Positions 8,904 to 42,100 of a stretch of 64,000 bases of DNA are shown piece after piece. Below the pieces are notes generated by a model, which ran no database searches, had not been told where the DNA came from, and was given only the letters and a program-made list of their open reading frames with translations. The stretch spans positions 52,975 to 116,974 of IMG/VR virus record IMGVR_UViG_3300024346_009227; one strand, 5' to 3'. The stretch comes from a virus. The translations under genes and the position numbers were made by a program. Position 1 is the stretch's first letter. Every line of letters begins with the position of its first letter.

Positions 8904-11900
8904 CTATGAATTCATTTCATTTTTAAGTTGTTTACCTATCTGTGTAACTATCCATCCTTTTAGTTCTTCTGTCGCTTGTGTTACCGCTGTATATACACCT
9001 TCTGGATTAAAGTCAATATTTAAAGAAGCATTCAAATTGCCCATTACTTCTATATTTATTATTGATGGTATTTTATTAACTTGTGTTTGTAATGCTTCAG
9101 CATAAGCTTTAAATGTATCTATTTGTTCGCCAAAAGGCTTAAGGAATGTAGTTCCTAGTTTGTTTATTGCATCAGCTAATTGTGTAACGGAAGTCATATC
9201 TATTGCTGGAGTTGCGTTTTCTTGCTGATTTGGAACAAATGCCCCTCTTCTAGCATACATAACTCCACCATTAGACATATAACTAGTATTTCCATTTATA
9301 TGTTTTAATAAATTTAAATTTTTAGATGTTGATTCTCTATTTACCACAAACTCTCCTGGTGTGAGCATGGCAGGAACAGTGTCTGTACCTCTTGGTGTGA
9401 ATCCACCATCTGCAAAATAGTTTACCAGACCACCAGAATTATAACCTTTTCTTTTTGACATTTTGTTGGCAGAATCAGCAAAACTTCCAACTCCAGCATT
9501 AAATCTAGACGAAGAAGCTAATATGTTTTGTGATCCTTCCTTATTAGCATTTGCCCCACTCTTAAATGAATCGCCACTTTGAACAAATTTGTTTCCAACT
9601 CCAGATAATTTTCCAGTTAATTCATTTATTCCAGATTCTATTGGATCTACTTTCTTGCCACGAATATTTCCAACACTACCACCAGTTCTAAACCCAGTAA
9701 CTTCTTTGCCACTATTGATTGCATGTAACAGAGAATAATTTTTAGATGAAGCTTGTTTATTTACTACAAACTCACCTGGAGTCAACATAGCTGGAATAGT
9801 ATCTACATTGCCACCAGTACTATATGAACCTAGATCCATTCCAAGAAAACTTAATTTTTGTCTTTGTGGTTGTTGTGGTTGTTCCTGTCTCTTTTTGGCA
9901 AATGCTGCCATTTGACGATAACCACTAGGCATTTGTTCTTGTGGTTGTTGTTGCATCTGTTGCTGTGGAGCTTGATTAAAGAAGCTTTCTGCATAATTAC
10001 TTGATTGAAATGCTGGTTGAGCAACTTGAAGGTTTTGTGGTCGTTGTTGTGCCTGTTGTTGTGGCAACTTTCCTGCAAAATTACTTGGTCTTGGACCTGA
10101 TTGTAATGCTGCTAATGCTGCTTGTTGTTTTTGTTGTTGTGATTGTTGCTGAGGATTCTGATTAACTTGAAGTTGTGATCTAAATCTATTCGCTCTTTGT
10201 CGTTCTATAGCATTTCTTGCTAGTGTTGATCTTTGTTGTCTAGCCCAATCATCTTGAAGTTCTCTTTGTTTTTTTTCTTCCGCTTCTTTTTTAAGTTTCG
10301 CCCTTAAATATTCATCTGTTGCAAATGGGTTTGCTGGTGATAATGTTGTAAGTCCATTTTCCGCATAAATCAAACCACCTAAACTTGCATATGTACTACC
10401 AGATTCTTCTTCTTGTTGTTTTTTTTGTTCTTCTAGATATTCTTTGATTTGTTTTTTAAATTCATCAGAATTACTTTGTATTCCTGATTCATTTGCTTTT
10501 GCTGTTTTTAATGCGTTTACTTCTGCACCAGTAGCAGAAATATTTCCAAAGGGATTGTTGCCACCACGCATTCTAGACTGAACATCTCCAAGCATACCCA
10601 TTGCTGCTGATGTTACGCCTTCGCCACCAGGCTTAGTTGGATCTTGAAAAGATAGTGCTTGTTGAGCAGAAACGCCACCAGACCCAGTAGAAAATCCAGC
10701 TTGCGTATTATCAAAAAGACTACCAGTTCCATCATTAAATCTAGTGTTAGAAAACATTTGGAATGCATTGTTTTCAGCTTGATTTTTTGCTGCTATTCTA
10801 TTAGTTATGTCTGAAGTAGTAGCTTTTCCAATATTGTCAATATATCCTTCTTGATCAACAGTAAGAGATGTTTCTTCTTCACTGCCACTATAAGAACCTA
10901 AATTTGCTCTTCTTTTTAAGTATCCGCCATCATATAAATAACTTACTAATCCACCGCTTGCATATCCAAGTAATTTTTCCGTATTTGACTTAAAAAGATC
11001 TACGCCTTTATGCTGTACTTTTTCTTGAAGATAGTCTTTTCCAACATGTTTTGCTCCATGTAGAGCAGTCTCAAGTGATGGCTTCATTGCAAATTTTGAA
11101 ATCGCAGATATCCCTGCTTTTGCAAGTCCAGTCATCCCCATAGCATTAAAGACCATATCTGTTGCAGCATTATTGCTGTTGTCTTCATTTTGTAAAAATT
11201 GATTCTGTCTACGAGAGAAAGTTTGAGTTGCCCTATTAGAAGTAGATTCTAAATCATCTTTCCTATCTTGCATGTAAGTATATTTATCTTTATTTTTATC
11301 ATCAACTAAATATCTCGAATCTTCTTCGTATTTTTTTTGTCTATTCATTTTTTCATAAAATGCTTTTTTTCTTGCTTGTCCACCATCTTCTAAATAAACT
11401 ATTCCACCAGTAGCTGAATATCCAACATCTTTACCACTATTTATTGCACTTAATAAGTCACCATGTTTAGCAGTAGCAGAGGCATTTATTACAAACTCAC
11501 CTGGCGTAAGCATAGCTGGTACTGTATCTGTACCTTTAGGCTTAAAGAACGAAGGATCAGGATTAGGACTATGGCTAGGAACACCACCAGATGAAAGATA
11601 GCTTACCATTCCACCAGATGACATTTTTCTAGCTTGTCTTTGTCGTTCTATTTGTGCTGCTGCTTCTTCTCTAGTTATTTCACCCCTATTTAATCGACTT
11701 TCAACACTTAGTTCTCCATATTGTCCTTCAAATAATTGTTGCTCTTTGGTTGCTCTAGGAAGTCTAGCTGCAAGAGCACTCTGTTCTTTTTGTTCTTTTA
11801 TAATTGCAGCTTGAAATTCATTTGGTTCACCTTTAACCACATTTTTATTTTCTTCTGGTGCGATAGCTTTTGTTTCACCTTTCATTTGCTTCAATCTATT

Positions 11901-14900
11901 TTTCATTGCCTCTCTAGTTTTAGCATTTTCAATATTTGCAACATCTAAATTTCTTTTATAATCAATTTTTCTTTGTTTTTTACCATCAACATCTTCTTCT
12001 ACAACTACTGCTTTTGATGAAATAGTTGCATATCCTGGAGAATTACTAACAAGATTTAAAAAATCTTCTGTCGTAAAAAGACCTGGACCGTCTGCTGGAA
12101 ATGTAAAAGAGCTATTAGGACTTCCTAATGTTGGTCTATCTCCAGCTAATTGTTTTAATCCATCATTTGTATATGCTTGGTCTGCAAGTTCATTTCCATT
12201 AATGCTTGGAGCTACCGCAGCAAATTTTGCTAATGCAGCCATAGGATTTGAAAATGCAGTAGTAATTACATCAGTAGCTGCACTAAGTGTAGAAGAAAGA
12301 CTTTTATAAGGAGCAGCTATTCTCAATGCGGTATTTTTGGCAGACATAGAAACTTGACCTTTTCCAGTTGCTGCCTTTATAGTTGCATAAGCACCATCTT
12401 CACCTTCTGCAAAATCAATTCCAGAGAATGGTCTAACAATTTTTTGTGCTTTTCCTTCTTGTTTTTCGGAAAGCTTATCTAATAGATTAAAGTCTTTATT
12501 TCTTCCAATAGCACCTTCTAAGCTCTTTCTGCTTATACCACCAACATTTGCTGCTGCTGCATTAAGAACGCTCAACGCATTTATTTTTCCTTCTTCTATC
12601 GCCCTTACAACTAAAGGTATAGCATCTGGTCCAGCTTGTTTTACTTTTGCATCAACAAAACCCTTAGTGTCTTTTATGTTTGAGTATTGATCAATAAAGT
12701 CAAGAAGACCCTTACCACTTATTGCTAAAGATCTTGTGCTTGCCTGTTGTTTAAAGAAAGAACCAACAATTTCTTTTTGGAATGGAAGTATAAGTTTAGG
12801 ATTATCAAAGTCTTCTTTTGCCAAACTTCCTTTTTGTCCACTGTATAAATTATTGTATTCTTTTAAGCCTAAAGGTATTAATTGATTTGGATCTTTACCA
12901 ATTTCAGCAAATTCTTTTTTGTTTAATTCTTCGCCTTGATTTTTAGCAAAAATACCTTTTAGCTTTACCATTTTGCCAAGTATAGCACTAGCTTGCACTT
13001 CTCTTCTTAAACCTATTTGTGCTAATCTTCCTGCATCGCCCTGTCTCTTTAAGAAAAGCTCGTCTTCTTTTCCCATATCTGTAGCGACAAACTTCTCTCC
13101 AGTTCCTTCTTTTATTTGAGTAAGATAAGCCTTAGAGTCAACATAGCTCTTATCTATTTCTGGTCTATTTTGACCATAAGCATTTCTTAACTTTTCATTA
13201 GATGTTAATCCAATTTGGTTATAGCTTGTTCTTCTTAGCTTTAATATTTCTAATTCTGCTTTTTTCTTAGATTCTAATTCTTTATTCCCTCTTGCTGCAA
13301 GAACCTCATTCTCTGCCATTCTTATCTGCGTATCTATGGGCGTTGTGCCTTCTTCGTTTGCAATGTTGGCAACTATATTTTCTTGTTTCTTTTCTGAAAC
13401 AATGTCTTTCTTTTGTGCTTTTAAATTTGCTATTGTTGCAATATATTGTGGTATTTTAGCATCTATATCAGCATCTATACCTTTATTAGATTCAGCACCA
13501 ATATTTTTAAAGTAATCTGGATTTATTTGAAATTGATCTAAACTTTCTATTTTTTCTGGTATGTTATATTTTTTATTCCAATCAATTATTTTCTTTTCTT
13601 TTAAATAATTTTCTATTAATTCTTTTCTTGTTGGTATTTTCTTTTTTGATTCTTCTTCTAAAAGATTTACATCGGTGTCGGTATGTTTATCCCCATAATT
13701 CTTAATGCCTTTCCATTTTTCTCCACCGCTTTTCCAAGCAAGAGCTTTTTGTTTTTCTGGACCATTCCAAAAATAAGTATCATAAAAATCACCTTGTGAT
13801 CCACTAAAAGCATTTGATTTTTGTGCATCTCCATTGTGAAAAGTTGTAAATAAACCGCCCCTTACATTTTTTGAAAGCTTTGGATAATCATCTTCCTTAA
13901 TTGAATTTGTAGTTAAATCAGAAAAGTGATCTATAAAAGTTCCAGTAATCCTAGCATCTTTATATGCTCGATGTCCTCTTAGATAATTATCTAAATCAAA
14001 TACTCTTGCAACCTTTCTTTGTAATGGTCTAATAAGGCCAAATGCAGAAGTAACTTGTTGAAGTCCAGCACCAATCGTTCTACGCCATGTTGTATCAGAT
14101 GTAGCATCATTATCAAATTTTGCTTTTGTATGATCATCAACTGCATCTGGCCCATAATTTAACATTAAAGGTATAAGTTTTTCTTTAACTTTTTTTGCTT
14201 TATCTTTTTCTAAGTTTTCTGTAGATAAGCCTCCTTTATCACTAATTTCTTTTTTAATGCTTTCATATTCTTTGTTAAGTGTTGTTTTTGCTTCTTGTGA
14301 CGAACCTTCTTTTATTTGAATTTGTTTAAAGTTTGAAAAAATATTTCCAAAATCTTGAAGTGCTTCAAATCCACCATTTTCTTCAATTGTTTTTTTAACA
14401 TTAGGATTTTGAGAAAGTTGTCCACTAGATAAAGACGAAATAACTTCAGATAATATAGACAGAGATGTTTTTTCTCTATCTTCTGGTTTTACTATTGCAG
14501 AAGGAACATTGCTTAATGATGATTTTACAAGTGAGTCGTATTTTCCTTTTATGTTGCTTTTAATTGCTGCTGTTTTTTGTTCATTCGTTGGTCCTACTTG
14601 ATTCCATATATTCATCACTTCTTCTGATGCTTTTATTCTTTTATCTAATACTTCTCCACCTTCTGCTAAATATGATGTTTTTCCACTATTGATAGACTTT
14701 AACAAAGGCAAGTTTTGTTGTGCTGCACTTCTATTTACTACAAATTCTCCTGGTGTTAGCATTGCTGGAACAGTATCAGTTCCTCTTGGAGAAAATGCTT
14801 GACCGCCAATTGCAAATCCAATTGCTTGTGCAGGATTAACATTGGCGTTAACTGGAGCAATACCTTGTTGTTGTGCTGCTAATCCACTAATAGATGCAGA

Positions 14901-17900
14901 CAATCTATTAATATTAGCTGTAGCAGCATCTGCTGCTGCTGTAAGTTTTACTCCAATTCCTTGATTTAATTCACTAACTGCTGTAAGACTAGATTCAAAT
15001 TTTTCTGCATTTATTCCTTGGTCCTCTGCTTTATTTGCAATTTTAACCCCAAGAGAATTTGATCCTCCAAGTTCTTGTTCGGATTTACTTACTTTTTCTC
15101 TTGCATCTTTATTTGTTTGTTGCGTAACATTTTGTACGGCTTTTGTTATTGCATCTTGTATATTTCCACCTTCTGAAACTGTAGCTATTGCTTCTGATTG
15201 AACAGATTTGCTTTCTTTTCCTGATAATCCTATTTTTGATAATATTTCATTTAATGTATCTGATTTTGCAGCAATTTCTTTTGCTGCTTCTGGACCTTGT
15301 TTATTAGAAAATGAACTTCCTATTGATTTTTTAAATTCATCACCCCTTAAAGATTCTCCAACATTTGAATATTTTTTATCTGCTTCTTTTTTTTCTTCTC
15401 TTGCTTTTATTAAACTTGATATTTTTCCTTTGTTTGCTGTAACATCTTTTAGGTTTTCATCAGTTACTCCAGCTTCTCTAAGAAAACCACTTTTTTCTTG
15501 AACATCTTTTATTCTTGCAGACTTTTGAACTTCCCTATTTTTTTCATCTTGAACTTGACTCTTTTCCATGCCAGCAATAAATTTATCTAGGTTTGAATAA
15601 AATGTAGTGTTCTGTTTTGTCAACTGAGAAAAATAATCAGTCTGTAAACTTCTTTGATTTCCAATTAACTCTTGATTTGCTTTTACTTGTTCGTCATATA
15701 CTTTAGCTAATTTTCCAACCAACATATCTTCTTCTGGTTTCTTTTTTCCTAAACCAGTAGTATTACGCACAATATTGTCCGCAATATCTTTTCCAACTGG
15801 ACCAAAACTATCTAAAAATGCAAAAAGTGCCTTGTTTTGTTCAGAACTAAAATTACTTACATTTCCACCTTGAGCTTGTGCTTGTTTAAGTAATCCTTGT
15901 CCTTGAACTCTATCTCTTAATATTTTTTGTCTTTCTTTTGGATCTGCCGTTAAAAACTCTCTTCCTCTTTGAGTTTCATTATCTCTTTCTTGTCTTACTT
16001 GACCAAGCTTGCCTTCCAAAATAGCAAGATTGTTTGATTGATCTGCCAAGTTCTTTAATGACTCTTGCAAATTTGAAGCTTCTGATTTTAATTTAACTAA
16101 CTCAGATGCTGCACCTCTAAATGCAGCCCCACCACCTTCTGCACCAGAAGCATTCTGTACTTTTGGTTCTAACTCCCTAATTCTTTCTTGTGTTCTTTTT
16201 AGATTATCTCCGATTACTCTAGAGTCCTGTGCTTCTGCTCCTTTAGTTCCAGTAAGCCTTTCTTGATTTGTTCTAAAGCCCTGCATTTGTCTATCTACTG
16301 AAATCAAGTTCCCTGCTTGTGATGGCAAACCAGCATTTGTAGCAACAGTCTCTGCTGTAAACTTATCTCTCTGTAGTTTTGCACCTTCTAAGTTTTTAAA
16401 AGATTCGCCAATTTGTTTTTGTCTTTGAGCTAAATTTTCTAAACCACTAATATATTGATTACTTGCATTTTCTAATCTTTGACTTATATCTTTAGCTGCA
16501 TTTAAAAATGGGTCTTTTATATTACCAAGTAGTTTTTCTGCAACCTTAGATACATCGCCACCAGCTTCAGCAAGCAGCTTCGTGTATTCTTGTCCAGATA
16601 CATTTCCAGCAACAGAACTAACAACTCTTTCTGCTCCAGCCCCACTAATACCTTGAGCACTTAAAGCTTCTCTTAAACCAGAGGCTATTTGTATGGCTAT
16701 GTCCTGACCACCAACAGGATCTTCTATTGCACCAGCAAGTAATGACGGCAATGCTTGTGAGGCTGCATTAATTGCATTTCCTTGAGTCTTAAATTCATTG
16801 CCATAAGTTCCAAGTGAATCAGAAAGTTTAGAAACGGCAGAATTAAAAGAATTAAAGTCTGGAGTTGATTTTTGATCAAACTGATTAGAAATTCCAGTTA
16901 CTTTTGTTGATCCAATACCGCCACTAAAAAATGACTCATTTGTGCTTAACCTATTAGAGAAACTTTCTACCGAATTAGCAGCAGCAACAACTGCTTCTGA
17001 TAATAATGCCATAGAATTTATAGATCTTTGATTTACAGTTACTGCTTCTTTTTGAGTTTTTTCTAATTGTGCAGCTTTAAAAGAATCTTTCATTACTTTT
17101 ACAATTTCTTTTTTAACATCATCAAAGCTTACATTTCTTGCATTAGCAATTTTTTGTATTTGTGCATTATTAAATCCACCACCGCCACTAGTTAATTTGG
17201 TATCTAATGATGCTGCAAAATCTTTATAGTCTAATGTTCCAGCATTTCCACCAGCCTGTCTTACTGCACTAGAACCAAGTTGTTCGGCTTGTTTATTTAA
17301 AATATTCGTAAGTGGAACTATTTGTGCAGCACCAGCTTCTTTTTGACTTTTTGAATTTAATTCGTTGAATTTTTTAACATCAAATCCACCAAAACCGCCA
17401 CCAGTAATTCCAGATATTAGTCTGTCAAAACCATTTTTCTCTCCACCAGCTTCAACGAATGCTTTTCCAGCGTTTGCTTCAGTAATAATTTTTTGATTTG
17501 CTGCAATTGATTCGGCAATAGTATCATCAAAAGTTCTTAACCCAGTATTTAATTTATCAAATGTTCCTTGCAATCCTGTTAGTGCAGCACCTAACTTTAC
17601 TTCTCTTATTTGTGCCTCTGCTTCTTTAGTGCCATCAGCATAACCTTTTATTAATCCAACAAATGCACCTAAAGCACCGCCTACAAGAGTACCTACTGGC
17701 CCAAGTGCCGAAAAAGCGGTAGCAGTAGTAGCAGCATATGTTCCAGCTTTTTCAATAGCACCAGCAAATTGAAGTGTGGACCTATAAGCTTCTTGCTGTG
17801 CTTTATCTTCAACAACTACTCCTTGTTCATTTGCTTTTGCAAGAGAAGAAACTTCTGGTGCTCCTGCTCTCATTCCAGAAGCAAGTAAAGATCCACCAAC

Positions 17901-20900
17901 AGCAGCAGTTGTTATTCTATTGGCGTAACCAGATGCTCTATCTTGTTTAAACTGTCTTTCTCCCTCTGCACCAGCTTCAAAATCAGTTCGTTTTGAACCT
18001 ACAAGTCTTTGCCCAAAATCTTTTACCTTACCTTGGAATGTTAAATCGCCACTTTCTTTATAATCTCCACCTTTAATTAATTTTGATCCTAAAGACTTAT
18101 CTCCTGTTAGTTCTCCTTGTTTATTAAAAACTGCCCCTCTTTTTCCTTGAGCAAACTGCTTAGTGTATTGATCAGTCATAGACTGGATTTGCAATTCGCT
18201 AACAGGTTTTACTTCTTTTTGTGCTTTTGCTCTAAGTTGTTTTTCTGTTGCTGCTCTATATTCATTAACTATTCCACTTCTTATATCTTCTCTTTCGCTT
18301 TTTCTAGGGGCTTTACCATCATTTTGTTTAGCGTATTCTTTTTCTCTTTGTTTTGAAATTTGTTTTATTGAATCAGGTGTAGTTATTGGCTTTGTTTGTC
18401 CAATTGGCCTTCCTTTTTCATTTACAATCTCACCCTTTGCATTTACTTGGAATGATCTAGTGGCTTTTTCTCCTGATGCTTTTGCTGCTGCTTTTGCCGT
18501 TTCGGCTTTTTGTATATTTGCTTCTGCATCTTTTATAGATTGTTCTGTTTTTAAAATTTCATTTTGAACATTTAATTGTTTAGTTCCAACAGCAGTAATG
18601 CTATTTTCTATTGCCACTCTATTTTGAGCATTTGTATTTCTATCATTAAGAAGTTTTTGATAATCTTGATTTAACTTTAAAATTTGTGCATCTTCTTTTG
18701 ATGTGTCTACTGCCGTTCTTGCCTTAGTATCTCTTGCGTTTGTTGCTGTAGTCAAAGCACTTTCAGCTTTTGTTATTTTTGCATCTATTGCTTTTGATTT
18801 TAATGGTTTTTCAGCTTCCAATTTTTCTGCTTTCGCCTTATCGATTTCTTCCTGTTCTTTTTTTGTGTTAGGAACTTTGTTGTCTCTTGCAGTAGTAGCT
18901 TGCGTAAGAGCATCTTCTGCTCTCATTATTTTTGTGTCTATGTTTTTTGTTTTTAATGGCTTACTAGCTTTTGCTAATTCGTCTTTTGCTTTATCAATTT
19001 CTTCTTGTTCTTTTTTTGTGTTAGGTCCAGCAGCAGTTTTATCTGCCATCTGTTTTGTCAATACATCTCTTTGTCTTTTTGCTTCTGCTATTTGTGCATT
19101 CACAACTCTAACTGATTCACCAGCATCTAATTTAGATTTTTTTCTTGCTTCTAGAACAGAAATTCTTCCGGTAATATTTCCAACTTTTGCAGTTTCACTT
19201 TTTAAGTTTACTGGCTGTTGAGATTTTAATCTTTTTGCTTCTTCTGCTTCTGCAAGTCTTTGACTCGCTGCATCAATTTTTGCTTGCTTCGCTTCTTGCA
19301 TGTCCTTCTTTTTTTGCTTTAAATCATCGACTTTTTGTTTTGTCGAAACAACTCTTTTATTTTCTTGAGTTAAATCTACTGGTTGAGCTTCTTTTGTGAT
19401 TTTTGCTTGTTCTGCTGCTGCAATTCTTTGATCTGCTGCATCTATTTTTGCTTGTCTAGCCTCTTCCATGTCTTTCTTTTTATCTTTTAATTCATTTACT
19501 TTTGTTTGTGCAGATCCAACCCTTGTATTTTCTTTAGTTAAATCTTGTCCTGCTGCTGCTTTTGCATCTCTAGCAGCTACTATTGCTGTACCCTTTGCCC
19601 TTAATTCTAATTCAGCAGTATATGAAGCATCTGCTGCATCTGTATTCTTCTGAAGTGCTTCCGCTAAACTAGTTGCTTCTTTACCTAAAGTAGATAGTGT
19701 TTTACCAAAACCCTTTAGTTCTGTATTAAAAACACCAATATTTGATTTTTCTGCCGATATGTCTTGATCTGCTCTAGCAACATTTCCAATTGCTTGATTT
19801 GATGTTTGATTTTGAACTTTTATTTCACTTACAATTCTTGTGGCTTCTGCTTTTGCATCTTTTTTTGATATTTCTGGATCTGACTCCATTATTTGATCAA
19901 CTAATGTTAAAAGTATTTTCTTTAAATTGTTTGGGCTATTTAAAAATGTATCACTAACTATACTATTACCAACTTCACCACCTTTTTTAAATTTTGCAAA
20001 ACTATTCATTTGATGAAGTTTATTAGCACCAATTTTCTTTGCTTCGCTAGGGCTATATACATATTCACCTGGCGTGAGTAATGCAGGAACTTTACCACCA
20101 GATGCAAATTTGTGAGCATTAGCTAAATTATCAATGCCTATGCTATTAACTGAAGACTTTTTAATTACAAAAGAACCTTCGTCTAAATCCATTGGAACTG
20201 TGTCAGAATTGCCAGTTCCTGGTACTAATCCACCAGAAGCAAAACCCCTAGCTTTTTTTCTTTCTTCCATCATTTCTTTTGTGATTGCTACTGATTTTCC
20301 TAAAGTTGGATCTAATGCTAATGCAGGAAGTGGCTTGTATATATCTTCACTATATTTTTTAGATTCTTTGGTCTTTTTAGATGGTTTCCTTACCATTATT
20401 GGTGGGGCATCTCCTTTGCCTATGCTTTTACTAAATTTTCTTTCACGACTACGAGATTCCCTATTTGTCTCTTCTATTGATGCCTTTTTTATACCAAAAA
20501 TATCATTTCTTTTTTGTTCGAGATATTCGCCCCAAGATCTTTCTGGTGCAATTCTCCGAATATTTGTATTTATTGGTGTGATACCATCATTCATTAAAGA
20601 CAATTTTCTTAGTGCTTCCTCTTTATCTCTAGCGGGAATACTTCCTTTTTTACCCTGTTCGTCTTGATAAGAAAATCTAGCCAAACCTTTATTTTTTTCA
20701 TCTTCTGATTTTCTTGATTTTTCATACATCATACCGCCAACTGCTCCAGCACCAAATCCTAAAGTGCCACCAATAAATGCCCCCGGAATACCACCAAGAA
20801 GAGCACCACCAACAGCACCAGTAATACCTCCAGCAATAGCACCAGCGGGTCCAGCCAAAATTCCTTTAGCATCTCTTTCTTGTCTTTCTGATTCTTCTAT

Positions 20901-23729
20901 TGCAAGACTGTTACCTCTTTTTGGAGGTCTAGATGTATTAATGTCACCTGTGTCTGTCTCATTCATATTCCAATATCTTCTAAGTTCTTTCGCTCTTTCT
21001 TTTGCTTGATCTCTTCTGTCTTGTCTTTCTTGTAGTTTTTGTTGTGAGGCTTTTTTGGCAGCAACAAGCTTAAGAGATATAACAAAGTATCCCATCTGCC
21101 TAATCTTTTGACGCATTTCATCTTCTGTTGCAGCATCAACACTATCACGAACAATATTCCCTTTTGTATCTTTAGCAACAAACTTACCACTAGCAAACTT
21201 TTGTCTAACTACATCTCCACCATAAGCAAATTTTCTTTTTGCTTTAGCAGCTTTCTGTCTATCGGTATATGCAGAAGAAGCATTCATTGTTTTAGATAGT
21301 TCTTCTTTTTCTCTAAATTGACTAGCATTTCTAACTGCTTCAAAACTATCAAATCTATTTGGTCTGGTGAATGTTTCTGGATTTGTACCTTTCCATTGAC
21401 TTCTTGCTTCGTCTTTAGTTGGAGCATCGCCAAAGATAGACCTAAACATTTGGTCTTCTGACTGAGCATTATTTTTTGGCGGTGGTGGAGGTGAATTTGC
21501 AGTCTTTGGTCCACTTTGTGATCTTGCTTTTTTAAGATCACTCCGATCTTTTAAACGCTGAAAGGCAGCATTTACTTGTGCCATATTTTCGGGCAGACCG
21601 CCCCTATCTGAATGATGAATTAAAGCTGCTCTTCTAAATGCACTTGTTAGTTCTGGACCTTGCGGTATATAACCTTTAGTAAATCCAAGTATTTCTTCTG
21701 GATAAAGACCTTTAGGAAATGGTTTTGATCTTGCTTCATTTCCTTCCATGAATCTTTGACGATAGATTGGTCCACCAAACGCTTTTTTAGTAGGATCTTT
21801 TCCACCTATAGCTGTATTTATATCTTCAGCCTGACCTTCAGTTGCTCTTTTTCCTGTTCCATTATATGCTATCGCTACTTTAGATCTTATTAGCAGACCA
21901 GCTAATTTATTATCAGTAAACATTGGTCTACCATATTTATCTTGACCTTTACCTTTAAATAAATTAGTTAGTTTATCTGAATCTTGATAATTAGAAGCAG
22001 CGTATTTTTCAGTTATAGCCTTTGCCTGTTGACCTTTTTCTCTTTCTTTTTTTGTTCCTTTATTTAATTCATAAGCATCAACACCTTCTAGCCTTGTGCT
22101 TGTTCTAAATCTTGCTCTTGTTGGAACAACGCCTACATTTAAACTATCTCCATCAACTGTTTTGTTGTATTTTACACTGCTAACATCTCCACCCTTTAAA
22201 TACTTGCTTCTTCTGACTTGATTTCTAGGTACAACCATCTCACCTGGCTCAAGCAAAGCTGGCACTTTATCTCCAGTGCCACTTCCTGGCACTATACCCC
22301 CTGTTCTCATCCTAAGAAAACCGCCATCTGCTTTTTTATTTGTTCTTGCAGACGAACTATCTGCACCAGCACCCTTTACAAAACCTGTGGCAAAAGAGCC
22401 AATACTTTGACCAATTTTTACAGCAGCGAGAGCAGTAAATAATGGGAGTAAACCTTTAAGTGAATTGATTAATGACAAGACAGAAGTGGCAGCACCAATG
22501 AATGTATCAGCCAAACTTCTAAAGCCAGGGCTATTAACAATACTTCTACCAACCTCAAAAAAGCTTTCCTTCAACTTCTGTAGTTTTACAGCAAGAGCAT
22601 CCTGTGCCTGACCAGCATTAACAGCCAAAGACACACTACCAGCTTGAGCTACCCCTAATGCCTTCTGTGCAGTAGCAAATTCTTGAATAAGTGGGATAAC
22701 CTTACTGATCTGCCTATAACCACCTAATTGCTCAACAATGGCACTAAATCGGGGGTCTGTTGATCTTAATTCTGAAAGTCCAGAGGACAACCTTTTAATT
22801 GCTTCATATGGTCCAACAAACTGCTGTTCTAAGCCAACATCTCCTAAAGCCCTAGCTTCATCTGCGGTATATCTAAGATTTATACCAATTTCTTTTAGAG
22901 CATTAGCCGTATCATTTCTTTGTATTCGTGTAAATATAGTTCTTAAGCCAGTACCAATACTTTCGGCACTTTCTCTTGTCGTTTGTCGTACTGATGTAAA
23001 TAAGGCTATAAGCTCATTTAAATTACCACCAGCAGCTTTAAAAGCACCCCCTGTCTTTCTAATCGCCTCAATAATATCTGATGCTTCAACAGCAAACTCA
23101 CCCGCTACAGCATTAACAGAACCTAAAGCTGCACCAAGATCTCTTGCTTCAACTTTAAACTGCTTCATAATAGCAATAGCACCTTCAGTCGTATCTTTGA
23201 GGTTATCAAAGTTTGGTGCTAAAGCAGCTTGTGCCATTGCTTCTAAGGCATCTTTAGTTTCAGACAGAGTTAAGTTAGCTTGTTTTAAAACTACTGCTAC
23301 GCCAATTAAATCTTTACTGGAAACACCTAAATTTTTAGATAAGTTTGTTACTTGATCACCTACAGCAGCAACATCTTGTACTGTATCTGAAGAAACTTGT
23401 CTTAACCTAACCATTTCTCTATCAAAATCTACGGCAGCAGAAACAGCTTGTTTCATTGTGTTAGTAAAAGCAATGATTGAACCAGCAGTAACAGCGAATG
23501 CAGCAAATCTTTTAGCAGCAAAGCCAGCTTGCCTACCAAAATTTTCTATAGAATTAGTAACTTCAGAAAGCTGAGTTTTTAATGGAGTAAGAGAAGCAAA
23601 TGTTGCAGAATTTGTTCCTATTTTTAAACTGTTCACACTTCCTAATGTGCTATTTATTTGATTGGCTGCTGCTTTTAAAGCACCACTATTTACAGCAACA
23701 TTCAAATTGGCAGTCAAATTAAAAGCCAT
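8904..23729 (-). CDS. giant tail tape measure protein (TP901-type core) with multiple accessory domains
   Basis: 4941 aa; N-terminal TMP core (AVDFDREMVRLRQVS...LIALFTSVRQTTRESAESIGTGLRTIFTRIQ); Ala/Gly-rich helical stretches; position after tail tube and chaperones; repeated DTVPAMLTPGEFVV modules. Confidence 0.9.
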   Translation of the reverse strand: MAFNLTANLNVAVNSGALKAAANQINSTLGSVNSLKIGTNSATFASLTPLKTQLSEVTNSIENFGRQAGFAAKRFAAFAVTAGSIIAFTNTMKQAVSAAVDFDREMVRLRQVSSDTVQDVAAVGDQVTNLSKNLGVSSKDLIGVAVVLKQANLTLSETKDALEAMAQAALAPNFDNLKDTTEGAIAIMKQFKVEARDLGAALGSVNAVAGEFAVEASDIIEAIRKTGGAFKAAGGNLNELIALFTSVRQTTRESAESIGTGLRTIFTRIQRNDTANALKEIGINLRYTADEARALGDVGLEQQFVGPYEAIKRLSSGLSELRSTDPRFSAIVEQLGGYRQISKVIPLIQEFATAQKALGVAQAGSVSLAVNAGQAQDALAVKLQKLKESFFEVGRSIVNSPGFRSLADTFIGAATSVLSLINSLKGLLPLFTALAAVKIGQSIGSFATGFVKGAGADSSSARTNKKADGGFLRMRTGGIVPGSGTGDKVPALLEPGEMVVPRNQVRRSKYLKGGDVSSVKYNKTVDGDSLNVGVVPTRARFRTSTRLEGVDAYELNKGTKKEREKGQQAKAITEKYAASNYQDSDKLTNLFKGKGQDKYGRPMFTDNKLAGLLIRSKVAIAYNGTGKRATEGQAEDINTAIGGKDPTKKAFGGPIYRQRFMEGNEARSKPFPKGLYPEEILGFTKGYIPQGPELTSAFRRAALIHHSDRGGLPENMAQVNAAFQRLKDRSDLKKARSQSGPKTANSPPPPPKNNAQSEDQMFRSIFGDAPTKDEARSQWKGTNPETFTRPNRFDSFEAVRNASQFREKEELSKTMNASSAYTDRQKAAKAKRKFAYGGDVVRQKFASGKFVAKDTKGNIVRDSVDAATEDEMRQKIRQMGYFVISLKLVAAKKASQQKLQERQDRRDQAKERAKELRRYWNMNETDTGDINTSRPPKRGNSLAIEESERQERDAKGILAGPAGAIAGGITGAVGGALLGGIPGAFIGGTLGFGAGAVGGMMYEKSRKSEDEKNKGLARFSYQDEQGKKGSIPARDKEEALRKLSLMNDGITPINTNIRRIAPERSWGEYLEQKRNDIFGIKKASIEETNRESRSRERKFSKSIGKGDAPPIMVRKPSKKTKESKKYSEDIYKPLPALALDPTLGKSVAITKEMMEERKKARGFASGGLVPGTGNSDTVPMDLDEGSFVIKKSSVNSIGIDNLANAHKFASGGKVPALLTPGEYVYSPSEAKKIGANKLHQMNSFAKFKKGGEVGNSIVSDTFLNSPNNLKKILLTLVDQIMESDPEISKKDAKAEATRIVSEIKVQNQTSNQAIGNVARADQDISAEKSNIGVFNTELKGFGKTLSTLGKEATSLAEALQKNTDAADASYTAELELRAKGTAIVAARDAKAAAGQDLTKENTRVGSAQTKVNELKDKKKDMEEARQAKIDAADQRIAAAEQAKITKEAQPVDLTQENKRVVSTKQKVDDLKQKKKDMQEAKQAKIDAASQRLAEAEEAKRLKSQQPVNLKSETAKVGNITGRISVLEARKKSKLDAGESVRVVNAQIAEAKRQRDVLTKQMADKTAAGPNTKKEQEEIDKAKDELAKASKPLKTKNIDTKIMRAEDALTQATTARDNKVPNTKKEQEEIDKAKAEKLEAEKPLKSKAIDAKITKAESALTTATNARDTKARTAVDTSKEDAQILKLNQDYQKLLNDRNTNAQNRVAIENSITAVGTKQLNVQNEILKTEQSIKDAEANIQKAETAKAAAKASGEKATRSFQVNAKGEIVNEKGRPIGQTKPITTPDSIKQISKQREKEYAKQNDGKAPRKSEREDIRSGIVNEYRAATEKQLRAKAQKEVKPVSELQIQSMTDQYTKQFAQGKRGAVFNKQGELTGDKSLGSKLIKGGDYKESGDLTFQGKVKDFGQRLVGSKRTDFEAGAEGERQFKQDRASGYANRITTAAVGGSLLASGMRAGAPEVSSLAKANEQGVVVEDKAQQEAYRSTLQFAGAIEKAGTYAATTATAFSALGPVGTLVGGALGAFVGLIKGYADGTKEAEAQIREVKLGAALTGLQGTFDKLNTGLRTFDDTIAESIAANQKIITEANAGKAFVEAGGEKNGFDRLISGITGGGFGGFDVKKFNELNSKSQKEAGAAQIVPLTNILNKQAEQLGSSAVRQAGGNAGTLDYKDFAASLDTKLTSGGGGFNNAQIQKIANARNVSFDDVKKEIVKVMKDSFKAAQLEKTQKEAVTVNQRSINSMALLSEAVVAAANSVESFSNRLSTNESFFSGGIGSTKVTGISNQFDQKSTPDFNSFNSAVSKLSDSLGTYGNEFKTQGNAINAASQALPSLLAGAIEDPVGGQDIAIQIASGLREALSAQGISGAGAERVVSSVAGNVSGQEYTKLLAEAGGDVSKVAEKLLGNIKDPFLNAAKDISQRLENASNQYISGLENLAQRQKQIGESFKNLEGAKLQRDKFTAETVATNAGLPSQAGNLISVDRQMQGFRTNQERLTGTKGAEAQDSRVIGDNLKRTQERIRELEPKVQNASGAEGGGAAFRGAASELVKLKSEASNLQESLKNLADQSNNLAILEGKLGQVRQERDNETQRGREFLTADPKERQKILRDRVQGQGLLKQAQAQGGNVSNFSSEQNKALFAFLDSFGPVGKDIADNIVRNTTGLGKKKPEEDMLVGKLAKVYDEQVKANQELIGNQRSLQTDYFSQLTKQNTTFYSNLDKFIAGMEKSQVQDEKNREVQKSARIKDVQEKSGFLREAGVTDENLKDVTANKGKISSLIKAREEKKEADKKYSNVGESLRGDEFKKSIGSSFSNKQGPEAAKEIAAKSDTLNEILSKIGLSGKESKSVQSEAIATVSEGGNIQDAITKAVQNVTQQTNKDAREKVSKSEQELGGSNSLGVKIANKAEDQGINAEKFESSLTAVSELNQGIGVKLTAAADAATANINRLSASISGLAAQQQGIAPVNANVNPAQAIGFAIGGQAFSPRGTDTVPAMLTPGEFVVNRSAAQQNLPLLKSINSGKTSYLAEGGEVLDKRIKASEEVMNIWNQVGPTNEQKTAAIKSNIKGKYDSLVKSSLSNVPSAIVKPEDREKTSLSILSEVISSLSSGQLSQNPNVKKTIEENGGFEALQDFGNIFSNFKQIQIKEGSSQEAKTTLNKEYESIKKEISDKGGLSTENLEKDKAKKVKEKLIPLMLNYGPDAVDDHTKAKFDNDATSDTTWRRTIGAGLQQVTSAFGLIRPLQRKVARVFDLDNYLRGHRAYKDARITGTFIDHFSDLTTNSIKEDDYPKLSKNVRGGLFTTFHNGDAQKSNAFSGSQGDFYDTYFWNGPEKQKALAWKSGGEKWKGIKNYGDKHTDTDVNLLEEESKKKIPTRKELIENYLKEKKIIDWNKKYNIPEKIESLDQFQINPDYFKNIGAESNKGIDADIDAKIPQYIATIANLKAQKKDIVSEKKQENIVANIANEEGTTPIDTQIRMAENEVLAARGNKELESKKKAELEILKLRRTSYNQIGLTSNEKLRNAYGQNRPEIDKSYVDSKAYLTQIKEGTGEKFVATDMGKEDELFLKRQGDAGRLAQIGLRREVQASAILGKMVKLKGIFAKNQGEELNKKEFAEIGKDPNQLIPLGLKEYNNLYSGQKGSLAKEDFDNPKLILPFQKEIVGSFFKQQASTRSLAISGKGLLDFIDQYSNIKDTKGFVDAKVKQAGPDAIPLVVRAIEEGKINALSVLNAAAANVGGISRKSLEGAIGRNKDFNLLDKLSEKQEGKAQKIVRPFSGIDFAEGEDGAYATIKAATGKGQVSMSAKNTALRIAAPYKSLSSTLSAATDVITTAFSNPMAALAKFAAVAPSINGNELADQAYTNDGLKQLAGDRPTLGSPNSSFTFPADGPGLFTTEDFLNLVSNSPGYATISSKAVVVEEDVDGKKQRKIDYKRNLDVANIENAKTREAMKNRLKQMKGETKAIAPEENKNVVKGEPNEFQAAIIKEQKEQSALAARLPRATKEQQLFEGQYGELSVESRLNRGEITREEAAAQIERQRQARKMSSGGMVSYLSSGGVPSHSPNPDPSFFKPKGTDTVPAMLTPGEFVINASATAKHGDLLSAINSGKDVGYSATGGIVYLEDGGQARKKAFYEKMNRQKKYEEDSRYLVDDKNKDKYTYMQDRKDDLESTSNRATQTFSRRQNQFLQNEDNSNNAATDMVFNAMGMTGLAKAGISAISKFAMKPSLETALHGAKHVGKDYLQEKVQHKGVDLFKSNTEKLLGYASGGLVSYLYDGGYLKRRANLGSYSGSEEETSLTVDQEGYIDNIGKATTSDITNRIAAKNQAENNAFQMFSNTRFNDGTGSLFDNTQAGFSTGSGGVSAQQALSFQDPTKPGGEGVTSAAMGMLGDVQSRMRGGNNPFGNISATGAEVNALKTAKANESGIQSNSDEFKKQIKEYLEEQKKQQEEESGSTYASLGGLIYAENGLTTLSPANPFATDEYLRAKLKKEAEEKKQRELQDDWARQQRSTLARNAIERQRANRFRSQLQVNQNPQQQSQQQKQQAALAALQSGPRPSNFAGKLPQQQAQQRPQNLQVAQPAFQSSNYAESFFNQAPQQQMQQQPQEQMPSGYRQMAAFAKKRQEQPQQPQRQKLSFLGMDLGSYSTGGNVDTIPAMLTPGEFVVNKQASSKNYSLLHAINSGKEVTGFRTGGSVGNIRGKKVDPIESGINELTGKLSGVGNKFVQSGDSFKSGANANKEGSQNILASSSRFNAGVGSFADSANKMSKRKGYNSGGLVNYFADGGFTPRGTDTVPAMLTPGEFVVNRESTSKNLNLLKHINGNTSYMSNGGVMYARRGAFVPNQQENATPAIDMTSVTQLADAINKLGTTFLKPFGEQIDTFKAYAEALQTQVNKIPSIINIEVMGNLNASLNIDFNPEGVYTAVTQATEELKGWIVTQIGKQLKNEMNS

Positions 23730-29530: not shown

Positions 29531-31330
29531 TTAAAGCTTCTTTAAAATTAAATAATCATCTGAATACTTAAGCAAACTAAGTTTTTCTGATTTTTTATAA
29601 ATATCTGCAATTTCTTGATCTGCATTTACTATGATTAAAAAATCTTCTGGCCTTAAAAAAGTTTCTTGTTTTAACAATGAAAAATCAATAAGTTCTTGAG
29701 ACAAGCCTTTATAGTTAATTAATAATGTTCTAGTATTTTCATCTGGTGCTGCAAAATCATCTTCTTTATCTGTAAGAATAAAGTTTTCATAATTAAAGTT
29801 ATTTATGTATTTTTGAATTGATTCTTTACACATATTTTTGTATTCATCCACTCTAACTACCCCAAGGCCTTTTTGGCAAAGAGCAATGGTAGTTTGTAAT
29901 CCTTCTGAGCTTATATCTAAACAATATGAGTTATTTGCTGCCCAAACAATTTCTCTTACTGCTTCAACTGAAAGTCCACCATCAACATTAGTTAAAGGAA
30001 CATATTGAAATTTTAATCTCATTAATGCTTCTTCAAATGTGTACAAGATAGGAACAATTTTTTCTTTCTGGCATATATAAGAAAATTCAGTTGCTTCTTG
30101 ATAGTCATCTAGTACTTTTTTTGCAAAATCTTTACTTATCATCCATAAAGTTGAATCATCTAATTCATCAATATCAACAATCTTGTAAGATAATTGAGAA
30201 TGTGTTGTTTTCAAGCAGCCTTTATTTATTTGATCAAATATAGTTATTTTTGCCTGATTTGTTTTTATTAGTGGCCAAAAATCAAGCATGAAGTTAATGC
30301 TTTTTTCTAGTCTTAAATTGCCTTTGCAAATTAAAGCGTAATCATATTCTTCTGCAATAAACTTGTGAAGAGTTAACTTTAGATTTGCTCCAAGCATATA
30401 TTCTTTTTCTTTTTCCCATTTCATTTTTTTAAATGATTCTTCAGTAGTATTGCTTTCTCTTCCAATAATATAAGCTTTAATTTTTACATCATTTTTTTGT
30501 GCGGAAATTATAGGTGTTGGATTTCCAACTACTTTAGCAGAATCGGTAATTGATCTAAACAATTCATCTTGACTCACTTTTCCAGTAAAGTAAGTGATTG
30601 CCTCTCTATGATTCCAACCAAGTTCAGTCCAGCCAACTATATAATTGAATATTCTATCTACGATTTGTAGTGGGTAAGGAACGCCTTTTGGTCTGCTAAA
30701 TCTGTGTATCCATTTTAAAAATGGAAGACACAAAGACTTGCCACCATTCTGCCTTACTTTTTCTTGTATGTAACCTTCTTCACCACCAAAACCTCTGAAA
30801 TTTTTGTTGAATGTCGGCCAAACATCTCTTCTCATGCAGAAAACGCCTAGACCCTGCATAGGTATTTCAAATGGTTTTCCTTCGTGTACTCTTTTATCTG
30901 TTTCCCAAGTTCCATACATATGCCCTCTCCAACCTGGCTGAAAATGAGTAGATAAATCTCTTTGGTTGTCATACAAAAGTGGCCCTTGAATTAAATCTTT
31001 TGTGTTTTCATTTTCCCTTAAGTATTTTTTGAGTTCACTAATCACATCTTTTTTGAAAATAACATGACAATCAATGCACATTACAAATTTTCCAGTTGCC
31101 ATTTCAAAAACATGATTTCTAGACTGAGATGTTCCAGCTTTTTCTGGTGCGTGTATATACCTTGCTCCAACATGACCACAAGCATTTTTTGTGTCTTCAC
31201 AAGATTTTGGTTTTGTATCTACTATTAAAAGCTCTACATCTTCTAGATCGTGATAAGCTTTTAGTGCTTGAAGTGTAAAATAAACCCCATCAAAATCATC
31301 GTATGTAGCCATACCAATGGTTAAAAACAT
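29531..31330 (-). CDS. glycosyltransferase family 2 protein with C-terminal extension
   Basis: LTIGMATYDD...LLIVDT...GTSQSRN...ATGKFVMCIDCHV (GT-A DxD-like) ...FRGFGGEEGY. Confidence 0.85.
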   Translation of the reverse strand: MFLTIGMATYDDFDGVYFTLQALKAYHDLEDVELLIVDTKPKSCEDTKNACGHVGARYIHAPEKAGTSQSRNHVFEMATGKFVMCIDCHVIFKKDVISELKKYLRENENTKDLIQGPLLYDNQRDLSTHFQPGWRGHMYGTWETDKRVHEGKPFEIPMQGLGVFCMRRDVWPTFNKNFRGFGGEEGYIQEKVRQNGGKSLCLPFLKWIHRFSRPKGVPYPLQIVDRIFNYIVGWTELGWNHREAITYFTGKVSQDELFRSITDSAKVVGNPTPIISAQKNDVKIKAYIIGRESNTTEESFKKMKWEKEKEYMLGANLKLTLHKFIAEEYDYALICKGNLRLEKSINFMLDFWPLIKTNQAKITIFDQINKGCLKTTHSQLSYKIVDIDELDDSTLWMISKDFAKKVLDDYQEATEFSYICQKEKIVPILYTFEEALMRLKFQYVPLTNVDGGLSVEAVREIVWAANNSYCLDISSEGLQTTIALCQKGLGVVRVDEYKNMCKESIQKYINNFNYENFILTDKEDDFAAPDENTRTLLINYKGLSQELIDFSLLKQETFLRPEDFLIIVNADQEIADIYKKSEKLSLLKYSDDYLILKKL

Positions 31331-36442: not shown

Positions 36443-36888
36443 TAATAACTTCCCCCCATTACACAAACTTGCAATGCAGTAGTACTAGCAGTAGTAGTAA
36501 CACTAACAGAGGCAAAAAGTTTAAATGTAGATGGCAAAACAAGAGGATTGGCAAAAGTCAATGTGGTAGTAAATCCAGCAACAGTAGTTGAAGGAGTTAC
36601 AGCGGTCACAAGTATTTCTGTAAACAAATAAGCTGTAGTACCATCATGTACCCATATGCCTACGATATTACCAGCGGTAGGTGCTGTAAAAGCGGTAGAG
36701 CAAGCATTGACTTGAATAGCATCAATTCTTAGCCCATTAGTAGAAGTGGGTACAACCTCTACTATATTTGCTGCTGCAAGACTAGCTGTTACTGTTGGAC
36801 CTCTAGTTGTACACGCTGTTTGTGCTGCAAGTGTTTTTGCAACAAAGTATGGAGCTTGAGGAAAAATAGGTGTTGATGTAACTGGCAT
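36442..36888 (-). CDS. hypothetical fibre-associated protein
   Basis: 148-aa Thr/Ala/Val-rich ORF, translationally coupled on both sides. Confidence 0.7.
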   Translation of the reverse strand: MPVTSTPIFPQAPYFVAKTLAAQTACTTRGPTVTASLAAANIVEVVPTSTNGLRIDAIQVNACSTAFTAPTAGNIVGIWVHDGTTAYLFTEILVTAVTPSTTVAGFTTTLTFANPLVLPSTFKLFASVSVTTTASTTALQVCVMGGSY

Positions 36889-39183: not shown

Positions 39184-42100
39184 CTAAGTTTTTATTATGT
39201 AGTTCAATGCCATACTTGGCTGCATATTGTTATGTGGATTATCACCACCAGTATTGTTTTTATTTTCTATAACTGGAGTAAATGTATGTGTATGGTCTAA
39301 GTTTGGAGAGTTATTAGTATAAACATCCCAACCAGCTTTTTCATTTCCTCGAACTATAAGCCTATCTAAATAACCACCACCAAGATTAGCAAATCCATTT
39401 GCCCCTGTTCCCAATCCTGCTCCAGCAGCTATTAATTGACTATGATTATGTACTTGATTATTAGACATATAGCCAGTATTACCACCATTGCTACCATATA
39501 CAATATTAGGATGACTATGTGATGGTATTTGACTAGCATTTAAAGTAATAGTTTCTGCCCCTACTGTAACAGACAATCCTCTATTTGTTAAGCCACTTCC
39601 TTGCCCAACACCAATTATTGTTCTGCCTCTTAAGTCTGGTACTCCAAATGTAGTGCCATTTCCTGCACTATATGTTGTTCCAATTACAGCAAATAATGCA
39701 GAATAAGTAACTCTAGAATAAGTGTTTGTACCATCACACAACAACCATCCAGCAGGAGCAGTGCTACCAGCGAAAGCAACTATTGATCCACTTGGAGTTG
39801 AAACTGCTGCTGGTGAACTAACCCAATTTGTTCCATCGCTTGTAAGAACATTACCAATTGTTCCAACAGATGTAAGCCCAGTTCCACCAGAGCTAACAGT
39901 TAAAGTTGCTGATAATCCACCAGCAGTAATTGCATTTTGATTTATCCAAGCTGGAGCAGCAGAACCATTTGATTTAAGTATTTGCCCACTAGTTCCAGCA
40001 GCAAGCATAGCTGTTGATCCAGAACCAGTTTGATATGAAATTTGTCCTGCTGCACCGCCAGCTAAATGTGTAGCTACTGATGATTTTCCAGTTGTGTCTT
40101 GATTAAGTATAGGTATATCAGAAGCAACTAAAGCTCTAAATGATGGAGCACCAGTAGAACCATTGGGTGATGCAAGAATAGTATTTGCTGTTTGATTAAC
40201 TAGACCTATTGTAAATCCACCAGCAGTAGTAACTGGAGAACCAGAAAGACTAAATATTGCTGGTACAGATAAGGATACAGATGTTACTGATCCGCTGGAT
40301 TGAAATCCTTGAGATCCTTGAACACCAACTAAGCCTTGATAACCCTGATAACCTTGTGAGCCATTTGTGCCACTAGAACCCTGTGATCCAGTGCCACCAG
40401 TTGCTCCTTGATATCCTTGATTTCCAGAACTTCCTTGAAGACCTTGAAGACCTTGACTTCCATTTGTTCCTTGGGAACCCTGAGAACCTTGTGCTCCAGT
40501 AGATCCAATTATTCCTTGTAATCCTTGTCTTCCCTGATAACCCTGTTCACCAACAGATCCTTGAACACCTTGATTTCCTTGTCTTCCTTGAAAGCCAATA
40601 TCTCCTTGACTTCCTTGAACACCTTGAAATCCTTGATCGCCTTGATTTCCGTAAATTCCTTGCCTACCCTGATCCCCTTGGTTTCCTTGGAATCCTTGAA
40701 CGCCTTGAATACCTTGATAGCCTTGTGGCCCTCTAATAAAACCAATATTCTGCCAATAGATAGGGGCATTGCCATTGTATATTAAACCATTTCCAATATT
40801 TGCAATACCAATAGATGGGTTTGGGCATCCTTCTGTTGCAGTTCCTTGTTCAGTGTCTGTAATTATCCAAACATCACCAACAGTAGCACCAGAGGTTTCA
40901 ACATTAAATATATTTTCCCAAGTGTCAGAACCTTTAATGCTAACACCAGATCCTGTCTGACCTTGATAACCTTGATATCCCTGATGCCCTTGAATACCTT
41001 GACTTCCTTGGTTGCCTTGTAATCCTTGAAAACCCTGATAACCTTGAAATCCTTGTTGTCCTTGATCGCCTTGAAGACCTTGATTACCTTGGTTACCTTG
41101 AAATCCTTGTCTTCCTTGTAAACCTTGTCTTCCTTGAAAACCTTGATCTCCCTGTTCGCCTTGTTCGCCTTGTGTTCCTTGTCTGCCTTGAGATCCTTGA
41201 TTGCCTTGAAAACCTTGATTGCCCCTATTTCCCTGTTCACCTTGATCACCTTGATCACCTTGTTCGCCTTGATTTCCTTGAAAGCCTTGTCTTCCTTGAA
41301 AACCTTGATATCCTTGATCGCCTTGATCGCCCTGATATCCTTGATTGCCTTGATCTCCTTGGATTCCTTGTCTACCTTGTCTTCCTTGAGATCCTTGTAA
41401 TCCAAAATATCCCTGATAACCTTGATCGCCCTGTTCACCTTTTAGTCCTAGAAATCCTTGGTTTCCTCTTAATCCCTGATTTCCTTGGTATCCTTGTTCA
41501 CCTTGTTCACCTTGTTCGCCTTGTTCTCCTTGATAACCTTGATTACCTTGATCGCCCTTAGAAACCAATAACGCCCAACCATTATTTGGTGGCGAAGAAC
41601 CTAATGACCAAGCACCAATGTTTACCAATTGATAAAATGAACCTTGGTATGTAACCGCATCATTTAAAACATATGTTGTTAATGAAGACCAAGTGCCTAT
41701 GTATGAGAATGGAACTTCACCTTGATAACCCTGATCACCTTGTGTGCCTTGATGACCTTGATATCCTTGATATCCTTGATATCCTTGGTTACCTTGATAG
41801 CCTTGCTGTCCTTGGTTCCCCTGATTTCCTTGAAGACCTTGAAAGCCTTGATAACCTTGTTCGCCTTGATGCCCTTGATATCCTTGTGTTCCTTGAAAAC
41901 CCTGATAACCTTGATCACCTTGATTGCCTTGATGTCCTTGAAAACCTTGTAATCCTTGTAAACCCTGCAATCCCTGACTTCCTTGAAAACCAGAACCTTG
42001 ATGTCCTTGTAAGCCTTGTGCCCCTATAGATCCAACAGGTTGAATCCAAATTCCAGTAACGCCATCATATATAAATATGTATATAATGCCTGTCGTTGTG

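Follow-up and report, generated by a model that had tools for sequence, protein, structure and literature searches.

A PilC/GspF-type N-terminal domain within the giant tape measure protein of an uncultured virus

The tape measure protein and its internal N-domain

The window analyzed here is the last 64 kb (positions 52,975 to 116,974) of the 116,974-base virus record IMGVR_UViG_3300024346_009227, which is rated 78% complete. It contains a 4941-residue open reading frame (ORF) with the core of a phage tail tape measure protein (TMP), and within this protein lies a segment of about 40 residues that is homologous to the N-terminal domain (N-domain) of PilC/GspF, the platform proteins of type IV filament machines. 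Searches against PHROG matched the ORF to phrog_28 (E 1.8e-23) and phrog_167 (E 5.7e-14), and on the PF10145 and PHROG matches to the TMP core the ORF is identified as a phage tail tape measure protein. The argument from gene order is weak here, since none of the 10 ORFs neighboring the TMP had a PHROG match. The parts of the gene that bear on the N-domain are as follows, with coordinates given in the window.

8904..23729, minus strand: tape measure protein gene, 4941 residues (ORF; PF10145, phrog_28, phrog_167; 13 relatives)
22719..23357, minus strand: PhageMin_Tail (PF10145) core of the TMP, residues 125-337 (PF10145 E 4.3e-24)
21069..21185, minus strand: PilC/GspF N-domain copy 1, residues 849-887, predicted strand-strand-helix-strand (hidden Markov model (HMM) 56.4 bits; AlphaFold; PF28597)
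20955..21056, minus strand: charged helix after copy 1, residues 892-925 (AlphaFold helix, predicted local distance difference test (pLDDT) 84-97)
20721..20867, minus strand: glycine-zipper hydrophobic segment, residues 955-1003 (hydropathy scan)
20550..20681, minus strand: copy 2, probable degenerate N-domain-like fold, residues 1017-1060 (AlphaFold, hhalign)

Copy 1 is the peptide KFVAKDTKGNIVRDSVDAATEDEMRQKIRQMGYFVISLK (TMP residues 849-887, encoded at 21069-21185 on the minus strand), and it is directly preceded by a FASG motif at residues 845-848. An original prediction, made from the letters of the window, had placed the FASG motif correctly and had the right peptide and the right start for this segment, but put its end at 21186, one base beyond the actual 21185. 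It had also named the segment a PilC/GspF N-terminal domain, and this was borne out by the NCBIfam models, a phmmer search, an HMM of host sequences and the Pfam label PF28597. In an exhaustive phmmer search of 1.84e9 representative proteins with TMP residues 845-892 as query, 77 proteins were recovered at a whole-library E ≤ 1e-3. These were mostly PilC/GspF-type N-termini, where the prediction had expected the best matches to fall, and the match begins within the first 8 residues of the protein's own sequence in 53 of the 77. The match of copy 1 runs on into the linker, to residue 893, and the longer fragments among the 77 matches pass from the N-domain through a lysine-rich linker to the start of a T2SSF domain. 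The TMP itself and two of its close relatives make up three of the 77; P0019, a repeat protein without the matched stretch, was set aside as spurious.

The NCBIfam models matched copy 1 weakly, PilC at positions 5-43 of 406 (E 0.055) and GspF at positions 2-57 of 401 (E 0.1). A host-only HMM, built from 78 PilC N-termini taken from prokaryote genome loci, matched copy 1 with 56.4 bits (E 1.4e-16), which was its sole significant match among the 1517 six-frame ORFs of the virus record. In addition, this TMP carries the precomputed Pfam label PF28597, as do 105 PilC rows and 13 of 15 ATPase rows; we read it as the family of the N-domain because the N-domain is the only part common to the TMP, PilC and these ATPases. 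A local Pfam search with 61-residue pieces covering copy 1 and copy 2 gave no match at E ≤ 10, a word-index protein search with the 61-residue piece gave none, and a sequence search of solved structures returned no relevant match for either copy. The positions that do not vary in host PilC (A, G, D, A, E and GYF) are unchanged in copy 1. Judged by these sequence matches, copy 1 is a true homolog of the PilC/GspF N-domain, at a level far beyond chance. Copy 1 belongs to this family, but the TMP is no platform protein: a platform protein begins with the N-domain and has two T2SSF (PF00482) domains and three membrane helices, and in the TMP the N-domain is internal.

The fold of this region was modeled with AlphaFold2 on residues 835-1065, using an alignment (A2) of two TMP relatives and 63 host N-termini. 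For copy 1 the model has strands at residues 847-853, 859-865 and 882-887 and a helix at 869-878, with pLDDT of about 90, so that the predicted fold is beta-beta-alpha-beta over about 40 residues, a prediction helped by the PilC N-termini in the alignment. The N-domain of GspF/PilC is described as residues 2-54, also beta-beta-alpha-beta, and as flexibly tethered (PMC10790770). Foldseek found no match to the predicted fold in the PDB at E ≤ 1e-3; its weak top rows include YkzG, T7 Gp2 and phi29 p56, and the first two of these are also structural neighbors reported for the PulF N-domain, which copy 1 resembles in this respect (PMC10790770).

Copy 1 is followed by the charged helix of residues 892-925 (net charge +3), whose LVAAKK start resembles, in alignments, the basic linker of the closest PilC proteins. 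The next hydrophobic, glycine-rich stretch (residues 955-1003) matched the glycine-zipper family PF13488 (Gly-zipper_Omp) at E 0.056 only and was modeled with pLDDT below 45; it is probably a membrane-inserting helical hairpin. Beyond it lies the second peptide, RFSYQDEQGKKGSIPARDKEEALRKLSLMNDGITPI (residues 1018-1053, encoded at 20571-20678 on the minus strand), which the original prediction had called a weaker second copy. The peptide is present as described, and the predicted fold agrees with such a copy, with strands at residues 1017-1022 and 1028-1033, a helix at 1036-1046 and a short strand at 1058-1060 (pLDDT about 90, from 3 alignment rows). The sequence support is weak: the host-only HMM gave -4.0 bits, which is not significant, BLASTP found no similarity between copy 1 and copy 2, and hhalign of four TMP versions of copy 2 against the N-domain alignment gave a local probability of 56% (P 1e-4). 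Copy 2 is thus a probable, degenerate N-domain-like fold according to the model. Taken together, copy 1 is like the N-domain of GspF, PilC and PulF in its sequence, with up to 67% identity, in its predicted fold and in the basic linker that follows, and it is unlike them in its position at residues 849-887 of 4941, ahead of a glycine zipper and a degenerate second copy.

Related host and phage proteins and the variable block

To find the host counterparts of copy 1, the phmmer matches were aligned (A1) and converted to patterns with which one genome per prokaryote species was scanned. At least 600 pattern matches were obtained and 442 were confirmed; the L-numbered loci are the best 80 of these 442. 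As the patterns were built from the phmmer matches, the scan is biased to that type of sequence, and the phmmer search itself is the unbiased step. The original prediction had likened the string IRQMGYFV to planctomycete PilC N-termini, and the scan agrees with this: 74 of the best 80 loci carry Planctomycetota names, and all four ORFs checked encode proteins of about 410-480 residues in which the N-domain lies before residue 75 and two to three T2SSF stretches are present (E 1e-63 to 1e-65). NCBI names of such proteins also include Planctomycetes, Gemmataceae and Planctomycetia. In L005 and L056 the platform gene lies between a PilB/GspE-type ATPase gene and a prepilin gene. In 57 of the best 80 loci another long ORF stops shortly before the platform gene; its family was checked in L005 and L056 only.

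The remaining six of the best 80 loci are labeled "uncultured Alcaligenaceae" (L010, L031, L035 and L038) or Bacteroidales (L040 and L080). They carry planctomycete-type ATPase and platform genes with a guanine-plus-cytosine (GC) content of 55-59%, and their bins may be mislabeled or mixed.

The closest relatives of copy 1 are platform proteins with two T2SSF domains, namely those of L002, L004 and L005 (67% identity including the VAAKK linker) and L008 (65%); the genome scan gave 67% for L002-L006 and L008. These closest host loci have a GC content of 44-51%, and that of the phage is 35.8%. Residues 1-480 of the TMP had no match in the five closest host-type genomes, and in 401 genomes of Planctomycetota they detected no related prophage, only two distant hits of 24-25% identity, so prophages give no support for the host. 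That the domain was captured from a host, as first suggested, is plausible in that its origin may lie in a host platform gene. The accompanying hint of a Planctomycetota host holds insofar as the closest relatives are planctomycete platform proteins, and it is weakened by its dependence on one domain, by the difference in GC and by the lack of prophage support. The sequences therefore hint at a host in the Planctomycetota, a clue that is supported yet not proven.

The N-domain is not confined to platform proteins and TMPs. It is also present at the N-terminus of PilB/GspE-type ATPases among planctomycete-type proteins (P0081-P0094, three sequences read), and the three ATPases read have a His-box of TLDAN or TLDAK vs. 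TLHTN in the consensus of operon PilB. In P0009 it occurs twice in a Ser/Thr kinase with a soluble T2SSF part. Among phage proteins, 13 relatives of the TMP were found (P0201-P0211, P0004 and P0005), with lengths of 4503-6532 residues. If each TMP residue accounts, as usual, for about 1.5 Angstrom of tail, this family of 14 TMPs (4503-6532 residues) implies tails of roughly 0.7-1 micrometer, provided that most of the protein is extended. The host-only HMM detected the N-domain in 8 of the 14 giant TMPs, and a broader HMM alone detected it in two more. Furthermore, P0008, a 2740-residue TMP-like protein, has five N-domain copies, and the domain is also found in TMP-like proteins of about 1000-1090 residues in tail-gene position (P0072, L083 and L084). 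In every TMP lineage seen, a glycine-rich hydrophobic segment follows about 12-70 residues after the N-domain. A tblastn search of TMP residues 470-1100 against 50,697 deposited phages gave no match.

Phage copies of the N-domain have 58-77% identity to host PilC, compared with 36-52% to the copies in other phage lineages. In an approximately unbiased (AU) test on a tree of 50 columns, a single phage clade was not rejected (p 0.79). The greater closeness of each phage copy to host PilC than to other phage lineages had raised the idea that several lineages captured the domain independently; with this value for one phage clade, this is not claimed.

Immediately upstream of copy 1 in the protein is a swappable block, residues ~500-850 (~21180-22230), in which this TMP and its close relatives L001, P0004 and P0005 have different inserts between flanks that are otherwise 55-94% identical. 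In the present TMP it includes two recognizable segments.

21804..22175, minus strand: endonuclease-like (staphylococcal-nuclease-like) insert, residues 519-642 (phrog_452 "endonuclease", E 3.1e-7)
21540..21662, minus strand: J-domain-like segment, residues 690-730, with HSD (residues 706-708) instead of HPD (PF00226, sub-threshold)

The nuclease-like insert matched the staphylococcal nuclease family PF00565 at E 0.096 only and had no match by sequence among solved structures. It is missing in L001, P0004 and P0005, which have other inserts at the same position; in P0005 the variable block contains a stretch with an HExxH-like motif. A nuclease stretch in P0008 looks similar to the insert, by eye only. 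The J-domain-like segment scored 14.2 bits (E 0.048) against a PF00226 cut-off of 27.8 and so has neither the HPD motif nor the score of a J-domain. Two relatives do carry a J-domain with HPD, L001 (PF00226 E 4.6e-6, 27.1 bits vs. the cut-off of 27.8) and P0004 (E 1e-3). A literature search, judged from titles and abstracts, brought up no earlier description of a virion tail protein with a J-domain.

Possible roles of the N-domain at the host membrane

Given the homology and the architecture of this region, we tentatively propose, with a little less than even confidence, that the N-domain of a Planctomycetota-like type IV filament platform gene, carried in the TMP, docks or competes at the base of that machine. 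Beyond the homology, predicted fold, relatives and architecture described above, we infer how the protein lies in the membrane, what it binds and what this means for the host. Copy 1 would derive from the platform gene of a Planctomycetota-like host and have been set in the head-proximal fifth of the TMP, within a block of swappable modules (nuclease-like and J-domain-like) that would act in the cytoplasm. J-domains have their partner, Hsp70, in the cytoplasm. We place the N-terminal block there because a J-domain would be of no use away from cytoplasmic DnaK and because the N-domain of PilC is cytoplasmic. In phage JBD30 the TMP is reported to be a trimer whose C-terminal end, located in the baseplate, is the first part to exit, and this TMP is believed to hold the end of the DNA (PMC11445458); by analogy, the N-terminal fifth of the present TMP would leave last.

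After ejection, the glycine zipper would insert into the cytoplasmic membrane, and insertion as a hairpin would leave both N-domain-like units on the same side of it. The N-domain or N-domains would then lie at the cytoplasmic face, as in PilC, and could engage a type IV filament machine at its base, either on the ATPase side or at the adjoining membrane surface. The fusion of the same domain to pilus-type ATPases points to a role at the machine base. PulF and PilC have been modeled as trimers (PMC10790770; PMC13039148), and a TMP trimer may dock at, or compete with, the PilC trimer, showing three N-domains as one platform does. Since TMPs are trimeric elsewhere, few copies would enter per infection, and docking at one machine fits this better than a cell-wide jamming. 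We thus favor docking or competition at one machine, followed by a lipid anchor, a role inside the virion and cell-wide inhibition.

Several observations weigh against this proposal. The N-domain has no known partner in PilC/GspF and is dispensable there, according to the account in PMC10790770, where the PulF N-domain is described as dispensable and yet needed for full efficiency of assembly. A domain search found PF00482, the T2SSF core, absent from the whole 116,974-base virus record. The host clue comes from one 40-residue domain, and the phage, with a GC content of 35.8%, is much poorer in GC than the closest host loci (44-51%). In addition, 4 of the 14 giant TMPs have no detectable copy of the N-domain, and in copies from sister-lineage TMPs the GYF is changed to GYE, GYD or GIK, a drift from the host consensus; both argue against a strict need for mimicry. 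The GC fraction of copy 1 (0.368) is that of the TMP as a whole (0.350 ± 0.049). A recent transfer of the segment was rejected on this composition, which is the phage's own, and the capture was therefore not recent. The sequences also allow one old capture followed by divergence, so the recurrence of the domain across lineages is not countable as repeated independent selection. The proposal also presupposes that a folded domain can travel through the tail lumen and that it ends up on the cytoplasmic side of the membrane.

The N-domains and charged linkers could instead be an anchor beside the membrane, holding the glycine-zipper hairpin on lipids and stabilizing a DNA conduit without contact to a pilus. 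This is compatible with simulations in which the PulF N-domain and its loop are reported to stay on anionic lipids and to leave a pure phosphatidylcholine bilayer (PMC10790770), with the net basic charge of the two TMP copies (+2 and +3), which flank the hydrophobic segment, and with the glycine-rich hydrophobic segment that follows the domain in all TMP lineages seen. It does not account for the choice of a pilus-platform domain, with up to 67-77% identity to host PilC, over any other amphipathic element, nor for the fusion of the same domain to pilus-type ATPases, and the host N-domains look net acidic in alignments, by eye. We consider such an anchor unlikely as the sole function.

A little less likely again is a structural role within the virion, in which the segment serves tail assembly, for instance as a spacer in so long a TMP, as a trimer node or through contact with a chaperone, and its descent from PilC is now irrelevant. 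The drift among sister TMPs, the loss from 4 of the 14, the fully phage-adapted composition of the segment and the possibility of a single old capture (AU p 0.79) speak for it. Against this stand the adjoining modules, as a J-domain and a nuclease make sense only in the host cytoplasm, and the residues invariant in host PilC, which copy 1 keeps.

The inhibitor of pili or type II secretion envisaged at the outset, a delivered or late-expressed domain that titrates the partner of the PilC N-domain and blocks piliation, giving superinfection exclusion, is distinctly improbable: phages are reported to disarm type IV pili with the small PilB binders Aqs1, Tip and Zip (PMC11656802; PMC13436744) and with a prophage FimU look-alike (PMC12952977), and the domain remains close to its host version, but the known inhibitors are free small proteins made in the cell, not parts of a virion protein, and if this TMP is a trimer like others, an infection would bring in only about three chains. 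The comparison with these proteins is still of use. As with Aqs1, Tip and Zip, which bind PilB or PilZ-PilB, the phage product here is putatively aimed at the type IV filament machinery, and the FimU look-alike also resembles a part of the host machine (PMC12952977). They differ from the present case in being free proteins expressed in the cell with an effect on piliation that has been shown, whereas the N-domain is a domain of a virion protein, known from sequence.

We regard as similarly improbable an extended version of our proposal, in which the TMP trimer of a phage of Planctomycetota imitates the three N-domains of the PilC trimer, the genome enters at the pilus platform, and DnaK, recruited by the J-domain, works like a ratchet to draw first the TMP head and then the DNA across the cytoplasmic membrane.

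Accessory domains embedded in TMPs are known. Mycobacteriophage TMPs carry peptidoglycan-hydrolase motifs, and the TMP described here is like them in having an accessory domain inside a protein that is delivered at infection. The same likeness holds for T5 Pb2, which has a zinc carboxypeptidase (PMC11445458). The mycobacteriophage and T5 Pb2 domains act on the periplasmic cell wall, whereas the inserts here have cytoplasmic counterparts, and one of them is a piece of a host pilus machine. No paper describing a PilC/GspF N-domain in a TMP was found, judged from titles and abstracts.

TMPs can thus carry pieces of a host pilus machine alongside modules of a cytoplasmic type, which suggests that, as the DNA enters, the head-proximal end of the TMP is at work on the cytoplasmic side. 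For uncultured phages with TMPs of 4500-6500 residues, the domain offers a sequence-based host clue (Planctomycetota, nearest clade GC 44-51%). It also gives a handle on what the PilC/GspF N-domain binds, as a domain kept by phages and fused to ATPases points to a partner at the machine base.

Other features of the window

Apart from the N-domain region, the TMP contains a motif of ~45 residues, G-T-D-T-V-P-A-M-L-T-P-G-E-F-V-V-N and then L-L-x-x-I-N-S-G-K, in five copies.

Within 8904-23729, minus strand: ~45-residue repeat motif, five copies, at TMP residues 487, 2985, 4068, 4643 and 4783

One copy searched against Pfam gave no match. The motif is common to the unrelated-looking TMPs P0072 and L083, and a variant is present in P0008.

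Two proteins with collagen repeats are also encoded on the minus strand of the window. The larger, of 2845 residues (39184-47721), combines a phage tail collar domain and a CBM5/12 module with 27 collagen-repeat stretches. The smaller, of 761 residues, lies at 36888-39173; both are probably very long fibers. A family 2 glycosyltransferase domain was found in a 599-residue protein (29531-31330, minus strand) that lies amid structural genes.

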